Of a stretch of DNA of 64,000 nucleotides, positions 24,541 to 57,891 are shown one piece after another. Positions within the stretch are counted from its first letter, which is position 1. Every line of letters begins with the position of its first letter. This DNA comes from an uncultured Bacilli bacterium (lineage in GTDB: Bacteria > Bacillota_I > Bacilli_A > RF39 > UBA660). Under the pieces are notes generated by a model. It searched no databases and was not told where the DNA came from. It worked only from the letters and a program-made list of their open reading frames with translations. Position numbers and translations under genes: made by a program. Location: NCBI GenBank assembly GCA_934096015.1, contig CAKOLD010000003.1, positions 2,640 to 66,639 on the forward strand, given 5' to 3'.

Positions 24541-26745
24541 ATGATAACACTAAAAAAAGTTTCTAAATTCTACTATAGTAAAGGAGTAATTGCTAGTGGG
24601 TTTAGTAAAATTAATCTTGAATTTAACTTAGGAGAATTTGTAGCAATCACTGGAGAATCTGGAAGTGGGAAATCCACATTATTAAATGTAATAAGTGGCT
24701 TGGATACTTATGAAGAAGGAGAAATGTATATTAATGGCAACGAAACAAGCCATTATACGGAAAAAGATTTTGAAGATTACAGGCGTAAATATATAGGTAA
24801 TATATTTCAGAATTTTAATTTAGTTAATAGCTATACTGTTTATCAAAATGTAGAATTAGTTTTATTATTAAATGGTGCTAAGAAAAAAAATATAAAAAAT
24901 AAAGTTTTAACTTTGATAAAAAAAGTTGGATTATATAAATTTAGAAATACTAAAGTCTCTAAACTTTCAGGAGGACAAAAACAAAGAGTAGCAATTGCTA
25001 GAGCTTTAGCCAAAGAGACACCAATAATAATTGCTGATGAACCTACTGGTAATTTAGATTCAAAAGCTAGTGAAGAAATTATAAAATTACTAAGTGAAGT
25101 TGCCAAAGATAAATTAGTAATTATAGTGACTCATAACTATGAACAAGTTGAAAAATATATTACAAGAAAAATAAAAATGCACGATGGTAAGGTACTAGAA
25201 GATAAAAAAATAAAAGAAATAAAGGAAGAAAAGAAACCAAAAAATTTAACATATCAAAATATAACTAACTTAAACAAAATAAGATTAGCAGTAAGAAATA
25301 CCTTTAATATAATTCCAAAATTTTTACTATTATTTTTTATTTATTTGTTTATTACTGTAGCAATTATAGGAGAATATGCATTTTTTAAAGACCAAGAATA
25401 TGTAGCCGAAAAATTTGGCTCTAATTATATTTTTAATAACACAAGTGATAAAAGAATAATCATAAAAAAATTAGATAAAACTAGTTTTACTGATGAAGAC
25501 TATAATAAAATAATGGCAATGGAAAATGTTGACTACGTAATTAAAAATGATTTGCTAGTTGATAATTCAATCAATTTAACAAACAATGAAACTCTATGGT
25601 TAGATGGAATTAGTGAAAATATTGAAAATTTTAGAGGAAAAATTGATGTTGGAAGAATGCCAGAAAACGATAATGAAATTATAATTGAGGAAGATAATTA
25701 CTTAAAAAATTTAGAAGAAGAAATTTTAAATAAAAAACTTTATTTACAAAATGTATATAATGGAAAAATTAATGAAGAAGATGCTTTAACGATCGTAGGA
25801 ATCAAATATATTGAAAATACTGGAAATTTTAATAATAAAATTTACTTAAGTAATACTATATTAGATAAAATTTCATTTCAAATTAACCAAGAATCAAGTA
25901 ATCTAACATTCCATTTTATGGATAAATATTACAATCTTTATGATAATAATTTACAAATAAGTCCAAGTGATAAAGTTTCTACAGGAAAAGCTTATATTAG
26001 TTATGACCTAAGTTATTTATGTCCATATCAAAATTGTATAAATAAAATAATGGGTATTAAAGTAGAAAACTTGTATTACACCGAAAATTTAGAATTATCT
26101 GTTGATAAAATGTATACTAAATATACTTACAAAAATTTATTAGAATTAAACAATTATGACTCAGCAAATGGAACAGTATTTATTAACACAATAGACTACA
26201 ATAATTTATTTAATAAAAATAGTTATCAAAGTAGTGTATTTATAAAGGATGCTAAAAAATTAGATGAAACAGTAGAAAAGTTAAATAAATCCGGAATTAA
26301 AACACTTGCAATAAAAAATACACTTGTGCAAGATGGAAGTGCGGAAATTATTAAAATTCTTAGAGCAATTGTAACTGCAATTCTTGTAATAGCCTTATTC
26401 TTTATATCATACTTTGTAATTAGTATTATTTTAAAATCTCGAAATGTTTATTTTTCAACTATAAGAATGCTAGGAGCAACAAAAAAAATATGTAAGCAAT
26501 TGCTAATTATTGAACTGTTAACAATAAGTAATTTATCATACTTTTTATACTTAATAGCATTATTGCTAAACCACGAGAAAGTATTTAATTTAAAATTTTT
26601 AGACACAGCAACTAACTATTTAACCATAAGAGATTTTATTATATTATATTTAATACTAACTGTAATGTCATATTTAATTAGCCAAAAATTTGCTAAAAAA
26701 CTCTTCAAAAAAAGTGCAATTAGTTCAATGAAGGAGGAAGTATAA
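24541..26745 (+). CDS. fused ABC transporter ATP-binding + FtsX-like permease protein (MacB-type)
   Basis: Walker A GESGSGKST, signature LSGGQKQR, Walker [12 protein letters not shown]. Then a large extracytoplasmic region and a C-terminal FtsX 4-TM domain. Confidence 0.7.
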   Translation: MITLKKVSKFYYSKGVIASGFSKINLEFNLGEFVAITGESGSGKSTLLNVISGLDTYEEGEMYINGNETSHYTEKDFEDYRRKYIGNIFQNFNLVNSYTVYQNVELVLLLNGAKKKNIKNKVLTLIKKVGLYKFRNTKVSKLSGGQKQRVAIARALAKETPIIIADEPTGNLDSKASEEIIKLLSEVAKDKLVIIVTHNYEQVEKYITRKIKMHDGKVLEDKKIKEIKEEKKPKNLTYQNITNLNKIRLAVRNTFNIIPKFLLLFFIYLFITVAIIGEYAFFKDQEYVAEKFGSNYIFNNTSDKRIIIKKLDKTSFTDEDYNKIMAMENVDYVIKNDLLVDNSINLTNNETLWLDGISENIENFRGKIDVGRMPENDNEIIIEEDNYLKNLEEEILNKKLYLQNVYNGKINEEDALTIVGIKYIENTGNFNNKIYLSNTILDKISFQINQESSNLTFHFMDKYYNLYDNNLQISPSDKVSTGKAYISYDLSYLCPYQNCINKIMGIKVENLYYTENLELSVDKMYTKYTYKNLLELNNYDSANGTVFINTIDYNNLFNKNSYQSSVFIKDAKKLDETVEKLNKSGIKTLAIKNTLVQDGSAEIIKILRAIVTAILVIALFFISYFVISIILKSRNVYFSTIRMLGATKKICKQLLIIELLTISNLSYFLYLIALLLNHEKVFNLKFLDTATNYLTIRDFIILYLILTVMSYLISQKFAKKLFKKSAISSMKEEV

Positions 26746-29166
26746 ATGATTACTTTAAATAATGTTAACAAATACTTTAATAAAAATAGAAAAAATCAAA
26801 TACATGTAATTAATAATACTTCTTTAGAGTTTCAGGACACAGGACTTGTTGCTTTACTAGGACCATCTGGATGTGGTAAAACTACACTACTAAATGCAAT
26901 AGGTGGATTAGATAAGATAAAAAAGGGAAGTATTTACATTAATGATAAAAAAATAAGTTCAAGATTTGCTTACAAAGTTGATAAAATTCGTAATCTAAAT
27001 GTAGGTTATATTTTTCAAGATTATAAACTTATAGATAATATCAGTGTTTATGACAATGTAGCACTAGTTTTAAAAATGTTAGGAATAAAAGATAAGCAAG
27101 AAATAAAAAATAGAGTAGAATACGTTTTAGATAGAGTGGGAATGTTAAGGTATAAGTATAGACCTGCTGGAATGCTATCTGGAGGCGAAAGACAAAGAGT
27201 AGGAATAGCTCGCGCTATCGTTAAAGATCCTGAAATCATTTTAGCCGATGAACCAACAGGGAATTTAGACAGTAAAAATTCTTTGGAAGTAATGAATATA
27301 ATAAAAGCAATTTCTAAAGAAAAACTTATAATTTTAGTTACCCATGAAGAAGCTCTTGCCAAATTTTATGCAAGCAGAATTATTGAAATTCAAGATGGTA
27401 AAGTTATAAAAGATTATGAAAATGACCACGTAGATGATTTAGATTATGCCATTGATAATCGCTTTTATTTGAAAGATTTTGAAAACTTTAAAACGATAAA
27501 AGACGATAATGTAAATATAGAAATATATAGTGATAAAAAAGAAAAACTAAAATTAGATATTGTTTTAAAAAATGGTAATATTTATATAAATAGCAAAACT
27601 AATGAAGCCATTCAAGTAGTAGACGAAAACTCTAGCATAGAGTTTGTAAATGAGCACTATAAAAAAATTCATAAAAACGATATTGATAAATATACTTTTG
27701 ATTTTGATAAAATAATCGATAAAAATATTAAGAAGAGATATTCATCTATTCTAAATCCTTTAACGCTTATTATAAAAGGCTTTAAAAGAGTTTTTGATTA
27801 TCCAATATTAAAAAAAATATTGTTAATTGGTTTTTTCGTTTCAGCAATTTTTATAATGTACTCTGTTAGTACCACATCAGCGACCTTTAATATTAAAGAT
27901 GAAGATTTTGTAGTATACAATAAAAATTATTTATTAGTAAACACAAAAAAGATAAAAATAGATAATTATATATCATACGAACAAAATGCCAACATTCTTT
28001 ATATGATACCAACAAATTCTTTAGTTAATTTTAAATTAAGATTTAAAGAATACTATCAAACTAAAGATCTTCAAATTTCTATTGCTGGATCATTAACAGA
28101 TATTAATACTCTAGAAAAAAATACCCTAATTTTAGGAAGAATGCCAGAAAATGATAAAGAAATAGTAGTAGATAAACAGTTACTAAAAAGATATTTATCT
28201 AAAGAAGAAAAATTTCAGATGATAGGAATCACTAAAGACGAAGATTTTTTAGAAAGAGAATTAACAATTACTAATGTTGACAATTTTAAAATAGTGGGGA
28301 TTTCAGACACAAATAGTCCATCAATATATGCTGCAAAAAATATGTTTGTAAATATACTTGCTAATCAAACAAATGACAACTATATTGAAGAAAGTAACAA
28401 TCAATTATTAGACTATAACTTAGTGCAAGATAAAATCACTTTAAAAGAAGGCCGATTACCAGAAAACGATTATGAGACAATTGTAAATATAACTAATAAA
28501 GATTTAATGCCACTTAATAAAACTATTAATCAAAAAATTAATGATAAAAAATTAACCGTTGTTGGATATTATACAAGTGAATATGATTATAGCTTCTTTT
28601 TAGTAAATAATAATACTATAAAATATAAATTAATAACTGAAAGTTCAGATTTTATGGTATATCCTAAAGATAGAGAAAAAGCTTTAAATGACTTTCAAAA
28701 TTTAAATTTAAACATTAAAGATTCTTATGAAAGTAGCAAAGTAGATTATAAAAAAACAATACATGATAATGTTAAAAGTACACTAATTGTGTCAGGTATT
28801 ATTTTACTTATTTCATTAGTTGAAATCTTTTTGATGATTAGATCATCATTCTTATCAAGAATAAAAGAAATAGGAATATATAGGGCAATAGGTGTTAAGA
28901 AAAAGGATATTTACAAAATGTTTTTTGGAGAAATATTTGCTATTACAACTTTAGCAAGTATTCCAGGATTAGTACTAATGGCATACATATTGTATAATAT
29001 TTCAAAAATAAAATATTTCTCCCCATTATTTTTAATAAATATTCCGATAGTGCTTGTATCAATAATTTTTGTGTATTTATTTAATTTACTTATCGGATTA
29101 CTTCCAGTTCATAGAGTCGTCAAAAAAAGACCAGCCGAAATTTTATCAAGGCATGATCTTGATTAA
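26746..29166 (+). CDS. fused ABC transporter ATP-binding + FtsX-like permease protein (MacB-type), second copy
   Basis: Walker [10 protein letters not shown], signature LSGGERQR, Walker [12 protein letters not shown]. Long extracellular region and a C-terminal FtsX domain. Confidence 0.7.
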
Positions 29167-33175: not shown

Positions 33176-33445
33176 ATGCTCAAAATATTTATGCAATATA
33201 AAGAAGGGAGATTGATTGTAGAACTAAAAGGGATTTTGAATTATTTGACATCACGAAAGATTGAAAAATATTTAAAATTAGTGATAAAAAAACACAAAAT
33301 TAAATACTTGACTTTCAATACAGCAAACTTAATAGGAATAGATAAAATTGGAATTAATAGTTTAAAGAAAAGCATTAAAGAAGTTCAAAAAAATTCTGGA
33401 GAATTTAATTTTACACAAAATTCTCAAATAAAATTAATAGGATGA
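33176..33445 (+). CDS. STAS-domain anti-sigma-factor-antagonist-like protein (SpoIIAA-like) lacking the conserved phospho-serine
   Basis: By-eye alignment with SpoIIAA shows LIGIDKIGIN in place of LSFMDSSGLG. ATG at 33176 has GGAGG 9 nt upstream. The gene overlaps the sigma gene by ATGA. Confidence 0.6.
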   Translation: MLKIFMQYKEGRLIVELKGILNYLTSRKIEKYLKLVIKKHKIKYLTFNTANLIGIDKIGINSLKKSIKEVQKNSGEFNFTQNSQIKLIG

Positions 33446-34113
33446 GGAAAATGGACGAACAAAGTGCAATTGAAGAAACTAAATTATTAATATACAAAAG
33501 TGCTCATAAACTAAAAAGTAAACTTAATAATTTAGATATTAATGATTTATTTCAAGCAGGATGTATTGGAGTTTTAAAAGCATTAAAAAATTATCAACCA
33601 GATGGTTCTACTAAGTTTTCAACATATGCCTATAAATATATACTTGGAGAAATGTATGAACTTGCTAATATTTCTAGGGATATTAAGTTAAACAAAGTAT
33701 ATTTAAAATCAAAAAAATTAATTGAAAAAGCTCGGTCGGTATTAGCTCAAAAATTAAATAGATACCCAACAATTGAAGAAATTAGTACTTTTACTGAACT
33801 TGAACCTGAGTTTGTAGAAGAAATAATAAATATTAGTTATGATACTATTAGTTTAGATGAAGAACCTGAAACATTAACTGATGGGTACAATTTATATAAT
33901 TATATTGGAACGACAGAAGATGTAGATACACAAATTCTAATTAATGATTCCTTAGAAGAATTAGAAGAACCATTAAAGTCAATAATAAATTATAGATATT
34001 ACCAAGATTTGACTCAAGCAGAAATAGCTGAAATTATGGGATTAAGCCAAGTAAAAGTATCAAGATTAGAGAATAAAGGAAAACAAAAAATCAAAGAGTA
34101 TATCTCTGCATAA
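33442..34113 (+). CDS. sigF: sporulation sigma factor, sigma-F-like (divergent, 223 aa)
   Basis: DLFQAGCIGVLKAL...FSTYA (region 2) and YYQDLTQAEIAEIMGLSQVKVSRLE (region 4.2) resemble SigF. It sits in the spoIIA-to-spoVA position. Confidence 0.6.
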   Translation: MRKMDEQSAIEETKLLIYKSAHKLKSKLNNLDINDLFQAGCIGVLKALKNYQPDGSTKFSTYAYKYILGEMYELANISRDIKLNKVYLKSKKLIEKARSVLAQKLNRYPTIEEISTFTELEPEFVEEIINISYDTISLDEEPETLTDGYNLYNYIGTTEDVDTQILINDSLEELEEPLKSIINYRYYQDLTQAEIAEIMGLSQVKVSRLENKGKQKIKEYISA

Positions 34114-45566: not shown

Positions 45567-46085
45567 ATGACAAGAGTTAAAGGCGGTTCTGTTGCTAAAA
45601 ACAGAAGAAGAAAAGTATTAAAACAAGCTAAAGGTTATTTTGGAAGTAAACATAGATTATTTAAAACAGCACAAGAACAAGTTTTCCACAGTGGAGCATA
45701 TGCTTACAGAGACCGTAAAGCTAATAAGAGAAATTTCAGAAAATTATGGATTACAAGAATCAATGCAGCTTGTAGAGAAAATAATATAAGTTATTCAAAA
45801 TTTATTAATGGTCTTAACAAAGCAGGTATTGAAATCAATAGAAAAATGTTAAGTGAAGTAGCAATCGATAATCCAGCTATGTTCACAGAATTAGTAAATC
45901 AAGCAAATAATGCTTTAGCAGGTAAAAAAACAGTTAAAAATACACCAAAAGCTGAACCAGCAAAAGAAGAAACAAAAGATTTAAGTAAAATGACTGTTGC
46001 TGAATTAAAAAATCTCGCTAAAGAAAAAGGAATAACTGGTTATACCACAATGAAAAAAGACGAGTTATTAAATGCCTTAAAATAA
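45567..46085 (+). CDS. rplT: 50S ribosomal protein L20 with a roughly 50-aa C-terminal Rho_N/SAP-like extension
   Basis: First roughly 120 aa colinear with L20 ([29 protein letters not shown]...WITRINAA). The tail ends [31 protein letters not shown]. Confidence 0.85.
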
Positions 46086-51494: not shown

Positions 51495-51515
51495 AAGATA
51501 ATTTTTATCTTTTTT

Positions 51516-51549
51516 TTTGACATTTTTTTTATGAGTAATAAGCTAAAAT
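51516..51549 (+). promoter_or_regulatory. candidate spoIIG-type promoter: TTGACA -35 overlapping a near-0A-box, 22-nt spacer, TAAAAT
   Basis: TTGACA at 51516-51521 (TTTGACA is 6/7 of the TTCGACA 0A box), a 22-nt spacer, TAAAAT at 51544-51549. It follows the ftsZ terminator AAGATAA-ttt-TTATCTT plus a T-run. Confidence 0.3.
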
Positions 51550-51553
51550 ATAA

Positions 51554-52339
51554 TTGGTGGTTAAATTGACCATATATATTGATTTAGTAATATTTATTAA
51601 TTTTATGTTTGATTTTGATCTTTTACTAAGCTTAAATATGCTTCTAAAAAGAAGAACAAAAATATGGAAAATAGTAATTGGATCCTTAATTGGAAGTTTA
51701 AGTCTTCTTACTTTATTTTTAAATCTAAATAGTTTAATGCTTTTTATTTTTAAATTTTTAATAAGTGTAGTTATGATATTAGTAACATTTAAAAATAATT
51801 CTAGACAAGAATTTATTGATAACATGGTTTATTTATATCTTTTAAGTATAATTTTAGGAGGAACTTTATATTTGCTAAATGATCACTTTAGTTATAAAAG
51901 CTCTGGATTAATTTTTATAAATAAAGATTATAATATAAATTTAATCATAATATTAATTATTACACCACTGTTACTTATAGGATATAATATACAATTAAAA
52001 AAATTTCAATTAAACTATTCTAAATATTATAAATTAGACATATTATTAAGTGGAAAAATTATAAATTTAACCGCTTTTTTAGATACTGGTAATAAACTTA
52101 TCGATCCTATAACAAAAAAACCAATAATTATAATAAATCAAAATGTATTATCAGATAATTATCATTATTTTTTTGTACCTTATACTACAATAAATGGTTC
52201 AAGTATTTTAAAATGCATAAAACCAGATTATATTGTTATAGACAATAAAGTAATTAAAAATGTTTTAGTAGGGATAAGTGAACAACCAATAAAAATACCA
52301 GGTGTTGATTGTATCTTAAACGAAAGGATATTTGTATGA
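51554..52339 (+). CDS. spoIIGA: sigma-E processing aspartic peptidase SpoIIGA
   Basis: Five N-terminal TM helices (IYIDLVIFINFMFD...LLKRR) and catalytic FLDTGN. The likely start is the TTG at 51566 after GGTGG. Confidence 0.8.
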   Translation: MVVKLTIYIDLVIFINFMFDFDLLLSLNMLLKRRTKIWKIVIGSLIGSLSLLTLFLNLNSLMLFIFKFLISVVMILVTFKNNSRQEFIDNMVYLYLLSIILGGTLYLLNDHFSYKSSGLIFINKDYNINLIIILIITPLLLIGYNIQLKKFQLNYSKYYKLDILLSGKIINLTAFLDTGNKLIDPITKKPIIIINQNVLSDNYHYFFVPYTTINGSSILKCIKPDYIVIDNKVIKNVLVGISEQPIKIPGVDCILNERIFV

Positions 52340-53068: not shown

Positions 53069-53497
53069 ATGAAAAAGTTAAATATTTATGTTATTCACGG
53101 AGAAAAATTTAACTACAAAGAAGAATTTTATAAACCTTTACTTTTAAGCAAAATTGCTGAGCACAATCTTATTCTCCCACGCACAGAAAGATATAGAGAA
53201 GTTTACGCTAAAGATCTTATAAACAAAAGCGACTTCATCATAGTAAATTTAACAAATGCAACTTTTAGTGTATATCTTGAAACAAAATGGGCGAAGAAAG
53301 CAGAAAAGGATATTCTATTTATAACAAAAAATAATTCAAAATGTTCTTTTCTTTTAAATAAATATAAAAAACAGGCTCTTAAATATAATACAATAGAAGA
53401 AGAAAAAGAAATAATAGAGCAATATATAAAGCAGAACATAAATAATTTAAGCACTGAAGAAACAGACGGTACAATAAATTTAGGAAGTATAAATTAA
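53069..53497 (+). CDS. hypothetical protein
   Basis: ORF with RBS AGGTGAG. It occupies the position where sigG sits in Bacillus. Confidence 0.4.
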   Translation: MKKLNIYVIHGEKFNYKEEFYKPLLLSKIAEHNLILPRTERYREVYAKDLINKSDFIIVNLTNATFSVYLETKWAKKAEKDILFITKNNSKCSFLLNKYKKQALKYNTIEEEKEIIEQYIKQNINNLSTEETDGTINLGSIN

Positions 53498-54000: not shown

Positions 54001-54429
54001 ATGGAAAAATTTAACACCAGTATAACCGGATACAAAAAAAGTGAAGTTAATAAATTTGTAAATGATGTTATAAGAGAAGTCGATGACATGATTAATAAAA
54101 TGAAAGCCAAAGACTTAGAAATAGAAAAATTAAAAGCAGAATTAGAACATTATAAAAATATGGAATCGACGTTTAATAGAGCTATTTTAATGGCCGAAGA
54201 AGCGTCAAGCCAAATAAAAAAAATGGCTAGAGAAGAAAGTGAAAGTTTAATTAACGACGCAAAACGTAACGCAAACAGAATAATTAATGATGCGCTTCGA
54301 GCACGTGAAAAAGCCGAAGACGATACAGAAAGACTTAGAAGAAATATTATTACCTTTAAAAGAAGATTAAAAAGCATAGTAGAAAATCAACTTGAAGTTA
54401 TTGAAGATATAGAACATATTAATTTATAA
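54001..54429 (+). CDS. DivIVA-domain protein
   Basis: N-terminal DivIVA lipid-binding domain (F..SITGYKKSEVNKFVNDV), then a coiled coil. Confidence 0.7.
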   Translation: MEKFNTSITGYKKSEVNKFVNDVIREVDDMINKMKAKDLEIEKLKAELEHYKNMESTFNRAILMAEEASSQIKKMAREESESLINDAKRNANRIINDALRAREKAEDDTERLRRNIITFKRRLKSIVENQLEVIEDIEHINL

Positions 54430-54489
54430 TATGTTTTTTTTAAAGGAAAAATTAATTTACTCACTACATTAATAAATGGAGGGAGTAAT

Positions 54490-56481
54490 ATGAAGAAAAA
54501 ATTAATTGTAAAACAAGCTGATGAAAATGATTGCGGAGCCTGCTGCTTACTATCTATAATCAAGTATTACGGTGGTAACAGTTCCTTAGAATTATTAAAA
54601 GTAGAAACCAACACTAGTAACCTAGGAACTAATGCTTACGAAATAATAAAATGTGCGGAAAAATATGGTTTAGAAGGAACAGGAATTAAAAATCATGACA
54701 TAAATAAAATAAAAACACCATTTATAGCACACTTAAAAATAAAAGAAAACTTTCATTTTATTGTAGTTTATAAGATAGAAAAAGAACATTTAATTATCAT
54801 GGATCCATCTAAAGGAAAAGAAAAAATCAAAGAATCAATTTTTTTAAAACAATTCACAGGTAATTTAATAATTTTAAGACCAGCTACCACAGTGTTGTAT
54901 TTAGAAAAAAACAGCACTTTAATTCATATTTTAAAAAATTTTTTTAAATATAATAAAAAAACTTTTAAAAGTTATTATTTTATATCTTTAATATTACTTT
55001 TAATAGATATTATATTTTCTCTAATTATTAAAATTTTAATTGATAGTCAAAACATCTTGCTCTACACAAATATTTTTTTTCTGCTTTTAGTTGTCAAATT
55101 ATTTTTAACTTATAAAAAAAATACAAAAGAATCTTTCTTAGAAAACCTCTTAAAGTTACATTTAAATTATCAATTTTTTAATCATATAATCTCTCTTCCA
55201 TTAAAATATATTCAATTAAAAACCTCAGGAGAAATATTTACAAAATTCAAAGAAGTAAATAAAATAGCAGAAGCATCCTCTAATTTTCTATTTAAAACAA
55301 TATTTGAATTGTTATCCGCTTTGATCATTTTAGTAGTTGTTACGTTATACAAATTTAAATTAGCAATAATTATCTATCTTTTTTTAATATTTTATTCATT
55401 TGTATCACTTATTCAAACTAAAAGACTAATTTATAAAATAAATAAATCTATAAACCTAGAAAGCGAATGTAATACTATACTAGATGAATATATTAATAAT
55501 ATTTTAAACATCAATATGTTAAACAGTAATAATTATTTTATAAAAAATTTTAATAAAGTATTATTACTAAAAAATAAAAATAAAAGTCAATTTGATAAAA
55601 TGATTATTATCTTTAGTATTTTAAAGGAAACAATATATCTATCATTTTATATCATTACTATATTATATTCATTCTATTTAAATTATTCAGTAGTTGATTT
55701 AATTACATTCCTTAATTTAGAAATAATTATTTTTGATAATATACAAAGTATTTTTAATGATATCCCAATATATTTATATGAAAAACAAGTATTTTTAAAG
55801 ATAAGTGATTTTTTTGGCCTTCCTTCTACAATAAAATTAGAAAATAAATATATATACGATGAAATTAAATTTAATAACGTGACATTTAAATACAATGAAT
55901 GCAATAAATATATTTACAATTTTAAAATCAACAAAAATGAACACGTGATGATTAAAGGCAAAAATGGTACAGGTAAAAGCACAATGTGCAAATTGTTATT
56001 AAGAATTTATGAAAATTATGAAGGAACTATTGAAATTGGAAATACCAATATAATGGATATAAATAAACAGATTTTAAAAAATTCTATTTCTATTGCCAAC
56101 CAAAATTCTAATATTTTTCATGATACTATAAAAAACAATATAATGTTGAATAAACAATATAGTGAAAAATTATTTAATAAGATAGCATTCATTTGTGATT
56201 TGGAATCTCTTGTTAGTAAGAAAAATAATAGATATGAGACAATAATATACGAAAAATCTTTTAACCTCTCTGGCGGAGAAATGCAAAAAATTATACTCGC
56301 TAGAACACTTATAAAACCGGCAAAAATTATAATACTAGACGAAACTTTAAGTGAATTAAGTATTGAATCAGAAATAGAAATTATTAAAAAATTAAATTTA
56401 TATTTAAAAGATAAAACAATCATATATATAACTCATAGAAATTTTGATAAATATTTTAAGAGAGTAATAACATTGAATTAG
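54490..56481 (+). CDS. peptidase-C39 domain ABC transporter (bacteriocin/peptide-processing exporter; SunT/LagD/ComA type)
   Basis: N-terminal C39 peptidase (catalytic Cys in QADENDCGACCLLSII, His in HFIVVYKIE), 6-TM domain, NBD with GKNGTGKST, LSGGEMQKI, ILDE, ITHR. Confidence 0.8.
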   Translation: MKKKLIVKQADENDCGACCLLSIIKYYGGNSSLELLKVETNTSNLGTNAYEIIKCAEKYGLEGTGIKNHDINKIKTPFIAHLKIKENFHFIVVYKIEKEHLIIMDPSKGKEKIKESIFLKQFTGNLIILRPATTVLYLEKNSTLIHILKNFFKYNKKTFKSYYFISLILLLIDIIFSLIIKILIDSQNILLYTNIFFLLLVVKLFLTYKKNTKESFLENLLKLHLNYQFFNHIISLPLKYIQLKTSGEIFTKFKEVNKIAEASSNFLFKTIFELLSALIILVVVTLYKFKLAIIIYLFLIFYSFVSLIQTKRLIYKINKSINLESECNTILDEYINNILNINMLNSNNYFIKNFNKVLLLKNKNKSQFDKMIIIFSILKETIYLSFYIITILYSFYLNYSVVDLITFLNLEIIIFDNIQSIFNDIPIYLYEKQVFLKISDFFGLPSTIKLENKYIYDEIKFNNVTFKYNECNKYIYNFKINKNEHVMIKGKNGTGKSTMCKLLLRIYENYEGTIEIGNTNIMDINKQILKNSISIANQNSNIFHDTIKNNIMLNKQYSEKLFNKIAFICDLESLVSKKNNRYETIIYEKSFNLSGGEMQKIILARTLIKPAKIIILDETLSELSIESEIEIIKKLNLYLKDKTIIYITHRNFDKYFKRVITLN

Positions 56482-56494
56482 AAAGGATGATAAA

Positions 56495-56632
56495 GTGGTT
56501 TTAAAAAAAGCTGAATTAGAAAACATCTATGGTGGTAAAAATAAATGGAGTATAGGAATTGTTATAGGAATACTAGGAACATTCTTTGCTGGTGTTATAG
56601 ATGGATATTTTAGGCCTCTTAGGTGCAATTAA
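56495..56632 (+). CDS. double-glycine-leader peptide 1 (class II bacteriocin-like precursor, 45 aa, GTG start)
   Basis: VVLKKAELENIYGG | KNKWSIGIVIGILGTFFAGVIDGYFRPLRCN. AAGGA lies 7 nt upstream of the GTG. Leader fits L-x3-E-L-x2-I-x-GG. Mature peptide has GxxxG motifs and is cationic. Confidence 0.6.
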   Translation: MVLKKAELENIYGGKNKWSIGIVIGILGTFFAGVIDGYFRPLRCN

Positions 56633-56778
56633 TGAATAAAAAAGAATTGGAATTAATTGTAGGAGGCATCTCTGGTAATTACTTAAATTATTTATCAAAG
56701 ATGATTAATACCATCTTTAATATTGGTAGAAGTATAGGTAGTGCGATTAACTATTTAAGAAAAGGGAAAACATGCTAA
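56632..56778 (+). CDS. double-glycine-leader peptide 2 (class II bacteriocin-like precursor, 48 aa)
   Basis: MNKKELELIVGG | ISGNYLNYLSKMINTIFNIGRSIGSAINYLRKGKTC. Its ATG overlaps the peptide-1 TAA by 1 nt. GxxxG (GRSIG), cationic C-terminus ending in Cys. Confidence 0.6.
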   Translation: MNKKELELIVGGISGNYLNYLSKMINTIFNIGRSIGSAINYLRKGKTC

Positions 56779-56790
56779 TCCCTTTCTTTT
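56761..56790 (+). terminator. rho-independent terminator at the end of the peptide pair
   Basis: AAAGGGA-aaacatgctaa-TCCCTTT hairpin followed by CTTTT; it overlaps the peptide-2 stop. Confidence 0.55.
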
Positions 56791-56829
56791 AATATAAAAA
56801 ATTGTTATAATGTAAAAAGGTGAATATAT

Positions 56830-57891
56830 TTGAATAAAGAAATAGAAAAAATTCTAAAAAAGATAGAAAAACATGGATTTAAAGCCTATATAGTAGGAGG
56901 ATATGTTAGAAATTATTTAATGGGAATTAAAACTTTTGATGTAGACATCGCAACTAGTGCCAAACCCAAAGATCTAATTAATATATTTCCTAATGCCAAA
57001 TATAATCAAAATTATGGAACAATTAAAATAATAACCAATGATTATAAATACGATATAACAACTTTTAGAAAAGAAAATTATTTTAACAATCAAATAAAAA
57101 TAGATTATGTCGATAACTTTGAAGAAGATTTTTCAAGAAGAGACTTTACAATAAATTCCATTTATATGGATAGATCAGGAAGTATCTATGATCCAACAAA
57201 TGGATTAAAAGATCTCCAAAATAAAAATATTATTGTTATTGGACAAACTTCAAAAAGATTTCAAGAAGATCCTCTAAGAATCCTAAGAGGCTTAAGATTT
57301 AAAATAGAATTAGATTTTAAGTTAGACAAAGGTATAATTGATTACATAAAAACAAATGGACAAGAACTATCTAAAATAAGCTATTTTAGAAAAAAAGAAG
57401 AATTAAATAAAATTTTTTCCTTAAAAAATAAACTAAGTGGATTAAACCTTTTAAAAGAATATAACCTTTTAAAACCATTAGATATTAATTTTAATAAAGT
57501 AGTTTATACTACAGATCCATTAGGAATGTGGTCTCAAATAGAATACAGCGATAAGTATCCTTTTACAAAAGAAGAAAAATATATAATAAAGAAAATTAAA
57601 AACATTAAAAAGCTAGATGACTATACTATATATCAAAATGGTTTATACATATCATTAATTTGTGCAGAAATTCTTGAAATCGAAAAAAAGAAAATTATTG
57701 ATACTTACAAAAATTTACCGATAAAAAATAAAAAAGATATAAAAATCAATTATAAAAAATTGGTGAATTTAGGATATGCTCCAAATAAAATAAATGATAT
57801 AATAAATTTTATAGAAAAAGGCATAATATTTGGAAAATGCAAAAATAATTATAAAAGCATAAAAGAATATTTACAACACAATTGGAAGTGA
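56830..57891 (+). CDS. cca: CCA-adding tRNA nucleotidyltransferase (TTG start)
   Basis: GGYVRNYLMG...DVDIAT polymerase-beta head motifs, then RRDFTINS. Confidence 0.8.
   Translation: MNKEIEKILKKIEKHGFKAYIVGGYVRNYLMGIKTFDVDIATSAKPKDLINIFPNAKYNQNYGTIKIITNDYKYDITTFRKENYFNNQIKIDYVDNFEEDFSRRDFTINSIYMDRSGSIYDPTNGLKDLQNKNIIVIGQTSKRFQEDPLRILRGLRFKIELDFKLDKGIIDYIKTNGQELSKISYFRKKEELNKIFSLKNKLSGLNLLKEYNLLKPLDINFNKVVYTTDPLGMWSQIEYSDKYPFTKEEKYIIKKIKNIKKLDDYTIYQNGLYISLICAEILEIEKKKIIDTYKNLPIKNKKDIKINYKKLVNLGYAPNKINDIINFIEKGIIFGKCKNNYKSIKEYLQHNWK

Follow-up and report, generated by a model that had tools for sequence, protein, structure and literature searches.

Class IIb bacteriocins, such as lactococcin G and the plantaricins E/F and J/K, are defined by adjacent genes in one operon, double-glycine leaders, a dedicated ATP-binding cassette (ABC) transporter and GxxxG motifs (PMC2850506). 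In this study, we analysed a 64,000-nucleotide stretch of contig CAKOLD010000003.1 from an uncultured Bacilli bacterium (hereafter the window), in which the gene of a peptidase-containing ABC transporter (PCAT) is followed by two small genes, here called pepA and pepB. It is very probable that this exporter serves two secreted peptides that function together, and we give a probability of about 0.6 to the reading that the pair is a bacteriocin in the strict sense, that is, a putative two-peptide system of the class IIb type in a minimal form. The locus shares with class IIb the adjacent but different genes, the double-glycine leaders and the dedicated C39 exporter. Its predicted mature peptides have a positive net charge, a length of 30-40 residues and GxxxG motifs, and one is hydrophobic while the other is amphipathic and helical. 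On the other hand, the window operon has no immunity or accessory gene, the leaders are only 12 and 14 residues long, and there is an invariant C-terminal Cys in each peptide. It is also a chromosomal locus, conserved in position and vertically inherited across a broad clade, rather than one that is strain-variable or plasmid-borne.

Three other described systems come close to this locus. Every strain of Streptococcus pneumoniae has CibAB, a two-peptide bacteriocin, and SP_0125, one of its genes, is annotated as a member of the lactobin A/cerein 7B family, the NCBIfam name that pepA also matches (PMC6722419). Both pairs are widely conserved, and the pneumococcal pair is exported by a peptidase-containing ABC transporter, as is predicted for the window pair. 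CibAB is used against siblings in competence fratricide, and its exporter ComAB is encoded elsewhere in the genome. However, the immunity gene cibC lies adjacent to CibAB, while the window pair has none; CibAB is conserved at the species level, as against a broad clade here, and the likeness described here is one of family name. In the PCAT1/CtA system of Clostridium (Acetivibrio) thermocellum (7s5j), the exporter gene also lies beside the gene of a double-glycine substrate in a spore-forming Firmicute, and the CtA leader aligned to the leader of the pepB family as the one match of a profile search of the PDB. The difference is that CtA is a single and longer substrate, and the likeness ends at the leader (E 0.2). 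We know of no biological role for CtA. At the rtg locus of S. pneumoniae (RtgAB; PMC7018657), an exporter of this type secretes a dedicated, adjacent and co-regulated set of double-glycine peptides, and what is described for it is a fitness advantage in colonisation rather than killing. An Rgg/SHP pheromone pair next to rtg controls it, and rtg varies extensively between strains; the window locus is strongly conserved and has no regulator beside it.

The sequence-only reading of the window had described a C39 ABC exporter, two tandem open reading frames (ORFs) of 45 and 48 codons behind it, a one-nucleotide overlap of stop and start codon between the two, and divIVA and cca as flanking genes, and all of these were found in the sequence. 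The GTG of pepA stands 13 nt past the stop codon of the ABC gene, and the TAA of pepA and the ATG of pepB share one base (TAATG). The features of the locus, in the coordinates of the window, are as follows:

54001-54429: divIVA, the upstream flank of the exporter operon
Upstream of the operon, beside divIVA: sepF
54411-54441, plus strand: intrinsic terminator of divIVA (A/T-rich stem of 11 bp, loop of 5 nt, then a U-run); upstream boundary of the operon
54444-54450, plus strand: conserved AGGAAAA element, 46 nt 5' of the ABC start codon; it may be a -35-like promoter element or a site for a regulator
54478-54485, plus strand: Shine-Dalgarno sequence of the ABC gene, GGAGGGAG, read directly from the sequence
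54490-56481, plus strand: PCAT gene, 663 aa
56482-56487: ribosome-binding site of pepA, AAAGGA
56495-56632, plus strand: pepA, GTG start, 45 codons
56495-56536: pepA leader, 14 aa ending in GG; the mature part, 31 aa, is at 56537-56629
56632-56778, plus strand: pepB, ATG start, 48 codons
56632-56667: pepB leader, 12 aa ending in GG; the mature part, 36 aa, is at 56668-56775
56755-56792, plus strand: terminator hairpin over the pepB stop codon; downstream boundary of the operon
56802-56810, plus strand: extended -10 promoter of cca, TGnTATAAT, read directly from the sequence; outside the cassette
56830-57891: cca (CCA-adding enzyme), the downstream flank

The exporter contains three Pfam domains, Peptidase_C39 PF03412 (E 8.7e-33, residues 6-132), ABC_membrane PF00664 and ABC_tran PF00005, and is laid out as a C39 domain (about 1-135), a transmembrane domain (about 135-445) and a nucleotide-binding domain (about 445-663). 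Across 27 homologues, no variation was found in the C39 catalytic set of Q9 (the oxyanion Gln), C15, H89 and D105. The nucleotide-binding motifs, namely Walker A, the Q-loop, the signature, Walker B (D617, E618) and H649, were invariant as well, and the conserved residues are G490-T498, Q538, S594-G596, D617-E618 and H649. The protein scored under the cut-off of every NCBIfam model, including those for PCATs (226 bits for TIGR01193, cut-off 524; 241 for TIGR03796, cut-off 853; 233 for NF045998, cut-off 500), and by its architecture only it is classed as a putative divergent PCAT. When species-representative genomes were scanned with the ABC protein, distant ABC proteins of 24-37% identity were returned and no close relative.

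The relatives that we compared comprise 13 orthologous loci and four partial contigs, in which the exporter is as little as 32% identical; six of the contigs used (L035-L040) are JGI/WGS metagenome contigs found with a profile of pepB built from a 9-sequence alignment. The sequence-only reading had named a lack of conservation in related genomes among the points that would count against it, and clear orthologues were present there. Against four related contigs, pairwise dN/dS was 0.18-0.41 (pepA) and 0.07-0.21 (pepB) at nearly saturated synonymous sites, and the relatives have ATG where the window pepA has GTG. A search of all six frames of the window with a double-glycine-leader pattern returned just pepA and pepB, compared with a mean of 0.2 in shuffled windows. 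Chance ORFs were ruled out by these dN/dS values and by this count, and judged by their substitution pattern, pepA and pepB are genuine genes under purifying selection. They had also been described as unannotated, which is correct insofar as they have no assigned function; the ORFs themselves are called in public metagenome assemblies, and an identical exporter protein was found on seven public metagenome contigs where both are called.

The leaders of pepA and pepB are MVLKKAELENIYGG and MNKKELELIVGG, respectively. Both show the canonical arrangement, in which positions -12, -7 and -4 are hydrophobic, -8 is Glu and -2/-1 are GG, and leader lengths are 12-15 residues across the orthologues. Mature pepA, KNKWSIGIVIGILGTFFAGVIDGYFRPLRCN, has 31 aa, a net charge of about +3 and a hydrophobic core, and amounts in essence to a single hydrophobic helix in which three small-xxx-small motifs occur. 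Mature pepB, ISGNYLNYLSKMINTIFNIGRSIGSAINYLRKGKTC, has 36 aa, a net charge of about +5 and an amphipathic character, with an 18-residue hydrophobic moment of 0.64; in the AlphaFold2 model of pepB (pLDDT 75), a short leader helix is followed by one long helix that spans residues 13-44. The GxxxG motifs are GIVIG and GVIDG in pepA, where G33 and G37 are invariant, and GRSIG in pepB, where G32 and G36 are invariant.

In pepA, the C-terminal motif G-x-x-D-G-(Y/F)-x-R-P-L-x-C-N was invariant in a 12-sequence alignment (A3), in which G33, D36, G37, R40, P41, L42, C44 and N45 are kept in 12/12, while in three pepA sequences outside this alignment (L028, L041 and L043) R-P-L varies and the Cys is kept. 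The pepB alignment (A1) keeps S-G, G32-x-x-x-G36 and the terminal Cys. In all 17 pairs examined, a Cys stands 0-3 residues from the C-terminus of each peptide, and its distance past the invariant GxxxG is 7 residues in pepA and 12 in pepB. The double-glycine leaders, the GxxxG motifs and the single Cys near each C-terminus, which had been proposed from the window by itself, hold in the orthologues compared. A profile-profile comparison found the pepA and pepB families to be alike in the leader only, with unrelated mature parts, which indicates two different peptides and not duplicates.

In the family searches, pepA matched the bacteriocin model TIGR03949 above its cut-off (25.6 bits, E 7.7e-6; cut-off 21.5), in a model search of the kind that had been suggested for these peptides. 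This model was matched at E <= 0.1 by 11 of 12 pepA orthologues (best 1.5e-6), and by just one of the 18 pepB-family members (E 0.018). A HMMER scan of 1.84 billion representative proteins with pepB gave 13 relatives at E <= 1e-3, all of which are double-glycine peptides of 50-61 aa with a like design; the word-indexed search with pepA returned its own cluster alone. A likeness to lactococcin G and plantaricin EF had been proposed as well, and it holds for the motifs but not beyond them. Against the lactococcin G models (NF038035 for alpha and NF038034 for beta; cut-off 37), pepA scored 15.0 and 14.2 bits and pepB 14.5 bits. Sub-threshold matches recurred in the two families, to alpha in 11/18 pepB-family members (best 0.0032) and to beta in 7/12 pepA-family members (best 8.6e-6). 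Membership in the lactococcin G/enterocin 1071 family was rejected, as the scores are far below the cut-off, and we regard the recurrent weak matches as a curiosity. The Pfam model of the ComC pheromone was matched by one pepB-family member at E 0.05 and by neither of the window peptides. A full-text literature search for the conserved peptide motifs returned nothing.

The boundaries of the operon were examined in the window and in relatives. The terminator at the end of divIVA folds at -7.4 kcal/mol (z -1.95); its equivalent in L025 is folded from a different sequence, and the alignment of L023 and L027 has the same inverted repeat at the end of divIVA followed by a T-run. A terminator hairpin had also been proposed after pepB, and its position was borne out better than its strength. 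In the window the hairpin is feeble (-9 kcal/mol, z -1.2), while a stronger stem with a U-run is present at this position in five of six folded relatives (L023, L025, L026, L027 and L029), with differing stem sequences; the stem of L023 has z -6.3, and L041 has no clear hairpin. At the position of the cca promoter, TTGATATAAT is present in L023, L025, L026 and L027, and the TGnTATAAT promoter of its own indicates that cca is transcribed separately from the cassette. From these signals, the three genes are predicted to form a discrete transcription unit between terminators of its own, and it is probably driven by its own promoter. No RNA element was detected near the locus with Rfam.

Upstream of the exporter, GGAGG-type motifs occupy the Shine-Dalgarno position of the ABC gene in all orthologues. 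An AGGAWWW element lies 45-51 nt 5' of the ABC start in 10 of the 13 orthologous loci (the window, L023, L025, L026, L027, L028, L038, L041, L043 and L045), some of which have other upstream genes. The string AAAGGAAAW is not enriched across the window, with 9 found and 9.7 expected. AGGAWWW resembles what we take to be the -35 element of sigma-H promoters (RNAGGAWWW). We dropped a firm sigma-H promoter call, as the -35-like AGGAWWW is conserved and the GAAT -10 is not.

We propose the following mechanism for the putative two-peptide bacteriocin. The precursors of pepA and pepB would be made from one mRNA, with their translation coupled through TAATG. The C39 domain would recognise the 14- and 12-residue leaders and cut after Gly14 in pepA and Gly12 in pepB, and the transporter would export the mature peptides. 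Mature pepA (31 aa, hydrophobic) and mature pepB (36 aa, amphipathic) would then act 1:1 in the target membrane, with the invariant GxxxG motifs probably packed in parallel. Such parallel packing would bring the C-terminal cysteines near enough for an interchain disulfide, a link for which a shallow literature search found no precedent among two-peptide bacteriocins. The pair would permeabilise competing Gram-positive bacteria. In the window lineage, the system would be reduced to its minimal form, in which neither an immunity nor an accessory gene lies beside it. Cleavage, export and the 1:1 action are expected by analogy with the known behaviour of such exporters and of class IIb peptides, the disulfide is suggested by conservation, and the antimicrobial activity of the pair is inferred as well.

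Several observations weigh against this interpretation. The match of pepA to TIGR03949 covers residues 3-34, which are the leader and the glycine-rich helix, and leaves out the invariant C-terminal motif. Neither Pfam nor NCBIfam contains a curated family for pepB, and its apparent likeness to lactococcin G alpha is far under the threshold. The leaders, at 14 and 12 residues, are shorter than the usual 15-30 of the class IIb definition (PMC2850506). Bacteriocin loci typically vary between strains, and it is unusual for one to be deeply conserved by vertical descent among the same housekeeping genes; such conservation would also fit a physiological or signalling function. As for the disulfide, the anoxic gut habitat makes an extracellular bond less certain. 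Finally, an immunity gene is always present in the class IIb operon (PMC2850506), while in the window there is no ORF at all between pepB and the terminator or cca, and a gene for an LcnD-type accessory protein is not present in the window.

This lack of partner genes, which had been noticed in the sequence-only reading, was confirmed among the window ORFs beside the locus, where no immunity, accessory or two-component gene was present. An ORF in this place after pepB is also lacking in L023, L025, L026, L027, L029 and L041, and no gene for a histidine kinase, a response regulator or an Rgg-type receptor was found among the flanking genes. Some distant relatives carry additional ORFs in the cassette. 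One, between the exporter and pepA, encodes a protein of 131-156 aa with one N-terminal transmembrane helix; it has no Pfam or NCBIfam match, and its copies are only weakly similar to each other. The other is a leaderless transmembrane ORF of 53-58 aa that overlaps the end of pepB. Their positions are as follows:

131-156-aa membrane protein: L028 8057-8497; L032 1873-2343; L042 7099-7545; L043 7034-7429; L045 7081-7533
53-58-aa third ORF: L045 7850-8011; L032 2645-2821

A tblastn search for the 131-156-aa protein found no homologue in the window, and the 53-58-aa ORF has no family match and is absent from the window and its clade. The C-terminal half of the 53-58-aa ORF gives a weak in-register alignment to the part of pepB that runs from GxxxG to Cys, and it also ends in Cys. 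Both are candidate accessory or immunity genes, which the window lineage lacks, and the 53-58-aa ORF could be an immunity decoy.

Another pair of transporter genes lies elsewhere in the window. At 24541-29166, tandem genes of 734 and 806 aa each encode an N-terminal ABC ATPase domain, and the FtsX-type permease domain was detected with Pfam in the 806-aa gene only. The best NCBIfam match of the 734-aa gene is "putative bacteriocin export ABC transporter" (lactococcin 972 group), which is the second-best match of the 806-aa gene; both matches are below the cut-off. It had been suggested that nearby MacB-type exporters might protect the producer. No support was found for this pair as a dedicated self-protection system: it is 25 kb away, its scores are under all family cut-offs, and nothing was found that ties it to the cassette.

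The conservation of the locus bears on its origin. A pepA-like and a pepB-like ORF follow the exporter in every homologue context fetched (exporter identity 32-50%). The two occur together and in the same order in 17/17 pairs, neither was found alone in the contexts examined, and in 11 of 15 loci the stop codon of pepA overlaps the start codon of pepB. The order sepF-divIVA-ABC-45/50-aa ORF-49-aa ORF-cca is present on four independent contigs (L023, L025, L026 and L027), where the exporter is 45-50% identical. In more distant relatives, the link ABC-pepA-pepB-cca-dnaD-nth is kept; spoIIIAH is upstream and cca-dnaD-nth downstream in L029-L031 and L041, and rpsU-yqeY is downstream in L028, L032, L042, L043 and L045/L046. 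Between the window and its near relatives, FtsZ is 94-96%, SigE 87-89% and the exporter 45-48% identical (34-41% in its transmembrane domain), and the peptides, at 48-73% identity overall, are conserved at least as well as the exporter. That FtsZ is so similar while the exporter in the same place is so different indicates that the cassette has long been in its position and evolves fast. In six loci, the pattern of exporter identity matches that of cca, dnaD and nth (window/L023/L025 in one group, L029/L040 in another and L041 apart), as vertical co-inheritance predicts.

These observations do not agree with the earlier proposal of a mobile bacteriocin cassette recently inserted into a division/replication neighbourhood. 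In favour of an insertion, the ABC gene has 17-21% GC, compared with 25-28% in the flanks, with the lowest values (17-19%) at 54750-56000 in the transmembrane part of the exporter, and terminators bound the operon on both sides. However, spoIIGA (51500-52250) shows the same dip to about 18%, so the low GC of the ABC gene is no evidence of foreign origin, and the dip appears to be a trait of membrane-protein genes in the source genome. No integrase, transposase or repeat boundaries were found at the locus, and tblastn searches with both peptides gave no match in 72,556 plasmid records. Recent horizontal insertion is refuted by the synteny, and we consider it hardly conceivable. By this comparison, the operon is ancestral and has passed by vertical descent through a clade of metagenome-assembled genomes labelled "Bacilli bacterium", which are uncultured, spore-forming and low in GC. 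Among the FtsZ matches that bear a name, the best are "MAG: Bacilli bacterium" sequences of 85-89% identity. The contigs have 23-33% GC and carry the sporulation genes spoIIGA, sigE, spoIIIAH, spoIVB, yabP and yqfD, and the sample labels suggest a ruminant or other herbivore gut origin for some of the metagenomes.

The same conservation can be read in favour of a product that is no weapon at all, either a lineage-wide signal or developmental factor (linked to stationary phase or sporulation and acting on siblings or mother cells) or a cell-to-cell cue. A dedicated immunity gene would be dispensable for such a product, which accords with its absence in the window and the near relatives. Vertical inheritance at a fixed position over 32-50% exporter identity is what this idea would lead one to expect, and in relatives the neighbours include, on the upstream side, spoIIIAH and genes for a GerE-family regulator and a Germane-domain protein, and on the downstream side, yabP and yqfD. 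The AGGAWWW element ahead of most of the ABC genes points the same way, and exporters of this kind serve both communication and competition (PMC7018657). Nevertheless, genes for a histidine kinase, a response regulator or an Rgg-type receptor are missing from the flanks, and the sigma-H -10 element is not conserved. The adjacency of sporulation genes may be a coincidence in small, gene-dense genomes. Moreover, pepA resembles a transmembrane helix and pepB forms an amphipathic helix of 32 residues, which is like pore-formers and unlike pheromones; pepA matches a bacteriocin model, and the window peptides have no match to ComC. We regard a signalling or developmental role as the one serious rival of the bacteriocin reading, possible but unlikely. 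A more specific form of this idea, to which we give somewhat less weight still, is a clade-wide, disulfide-linked heterodimer that serves the life cycle of the producer, in which the relatives would be self-protected by the 53-58-aa leaderless, membrane-anchored look-alike of the pepB C-terminus and the window lineage would have lost it. The heterodimer might then be a factor of stationary phase or sporulation with siblings or mother cells as its target, or a population cue driven by the AGGAWWW promoter element.

It may also be asked whether pepA and pepB are two independent one-peptide bacteriocins of the class IId-like type that share an exporter and are each active alone. Their mature parts come from unrelated families, loci with several bacteriocins behind one exporter are common, and some peptides of the lactobin A/cerein 7B family are reported to be active singly. 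Against this, both families co-occur in a fixed order in every pair, the frequent stop/start overlap favours equimolar synthesis, and conservation of the C-terminal Cys and of the GxxxG runs in parallel in pepA and pepB. We consider two independent bacteriocins improbable, and the putative two-peptide bacteriocin is the reading that we prefer.

A few other observations were made in the window. The conserved 142-aa ORF at 53069-53497, which follows sigE, has no family match; many spore-formers have sigG there, and its position is kept in all four near relatives (52-60% identity). At 33442-34113 a SigF/SigG-like sigma factor is encoded, which scored 125 bits against the SigF cut-off of 321. This low score suggests a divergent set of sporulation sigma factors in the lineage. 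The rplT gene (L20) at 45567-46085 encodes an extra C-terminal Rho_N (SAP-like) domain, with 172 aa compared with about 118, and no L20 leader was detected with Rfam upstream of infC-rpmI-rplT. Between nth and a D-Ala-D-Ala carboxypeptidase gene, a 35-aa transmembrane ORF that begins MKKILNFNFYIIILLLILLG is conserved in L023 (10650-10757) and L025 (10644-10751), and the window has no separate counterpart of it.

The finding does not touch a long-standing question, and we consider its importance to be moderate. If the peptides are active, they would represent a new two-peptide family, as pepB has no curated model and pepA has a new invariant C-terminal motif. The source group consists of uncultured and apparently widespread gut Bacilli that are hardly accessible to experiment in other ways, and the peptides, at 31 and 36 residues, can be synthesised. 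The exporter and its substrates are deeply conserved by vertical descent, which raises the question of why a supposed competitive weapon would behave as a core gene. The minimal operon without an immunity gene bears on how the producers of receptor-dependent bacteriocins protect themselves, and the invariant Cys at each C-terminus could mean that this is a covalently linked two-peptide bacteriocin.

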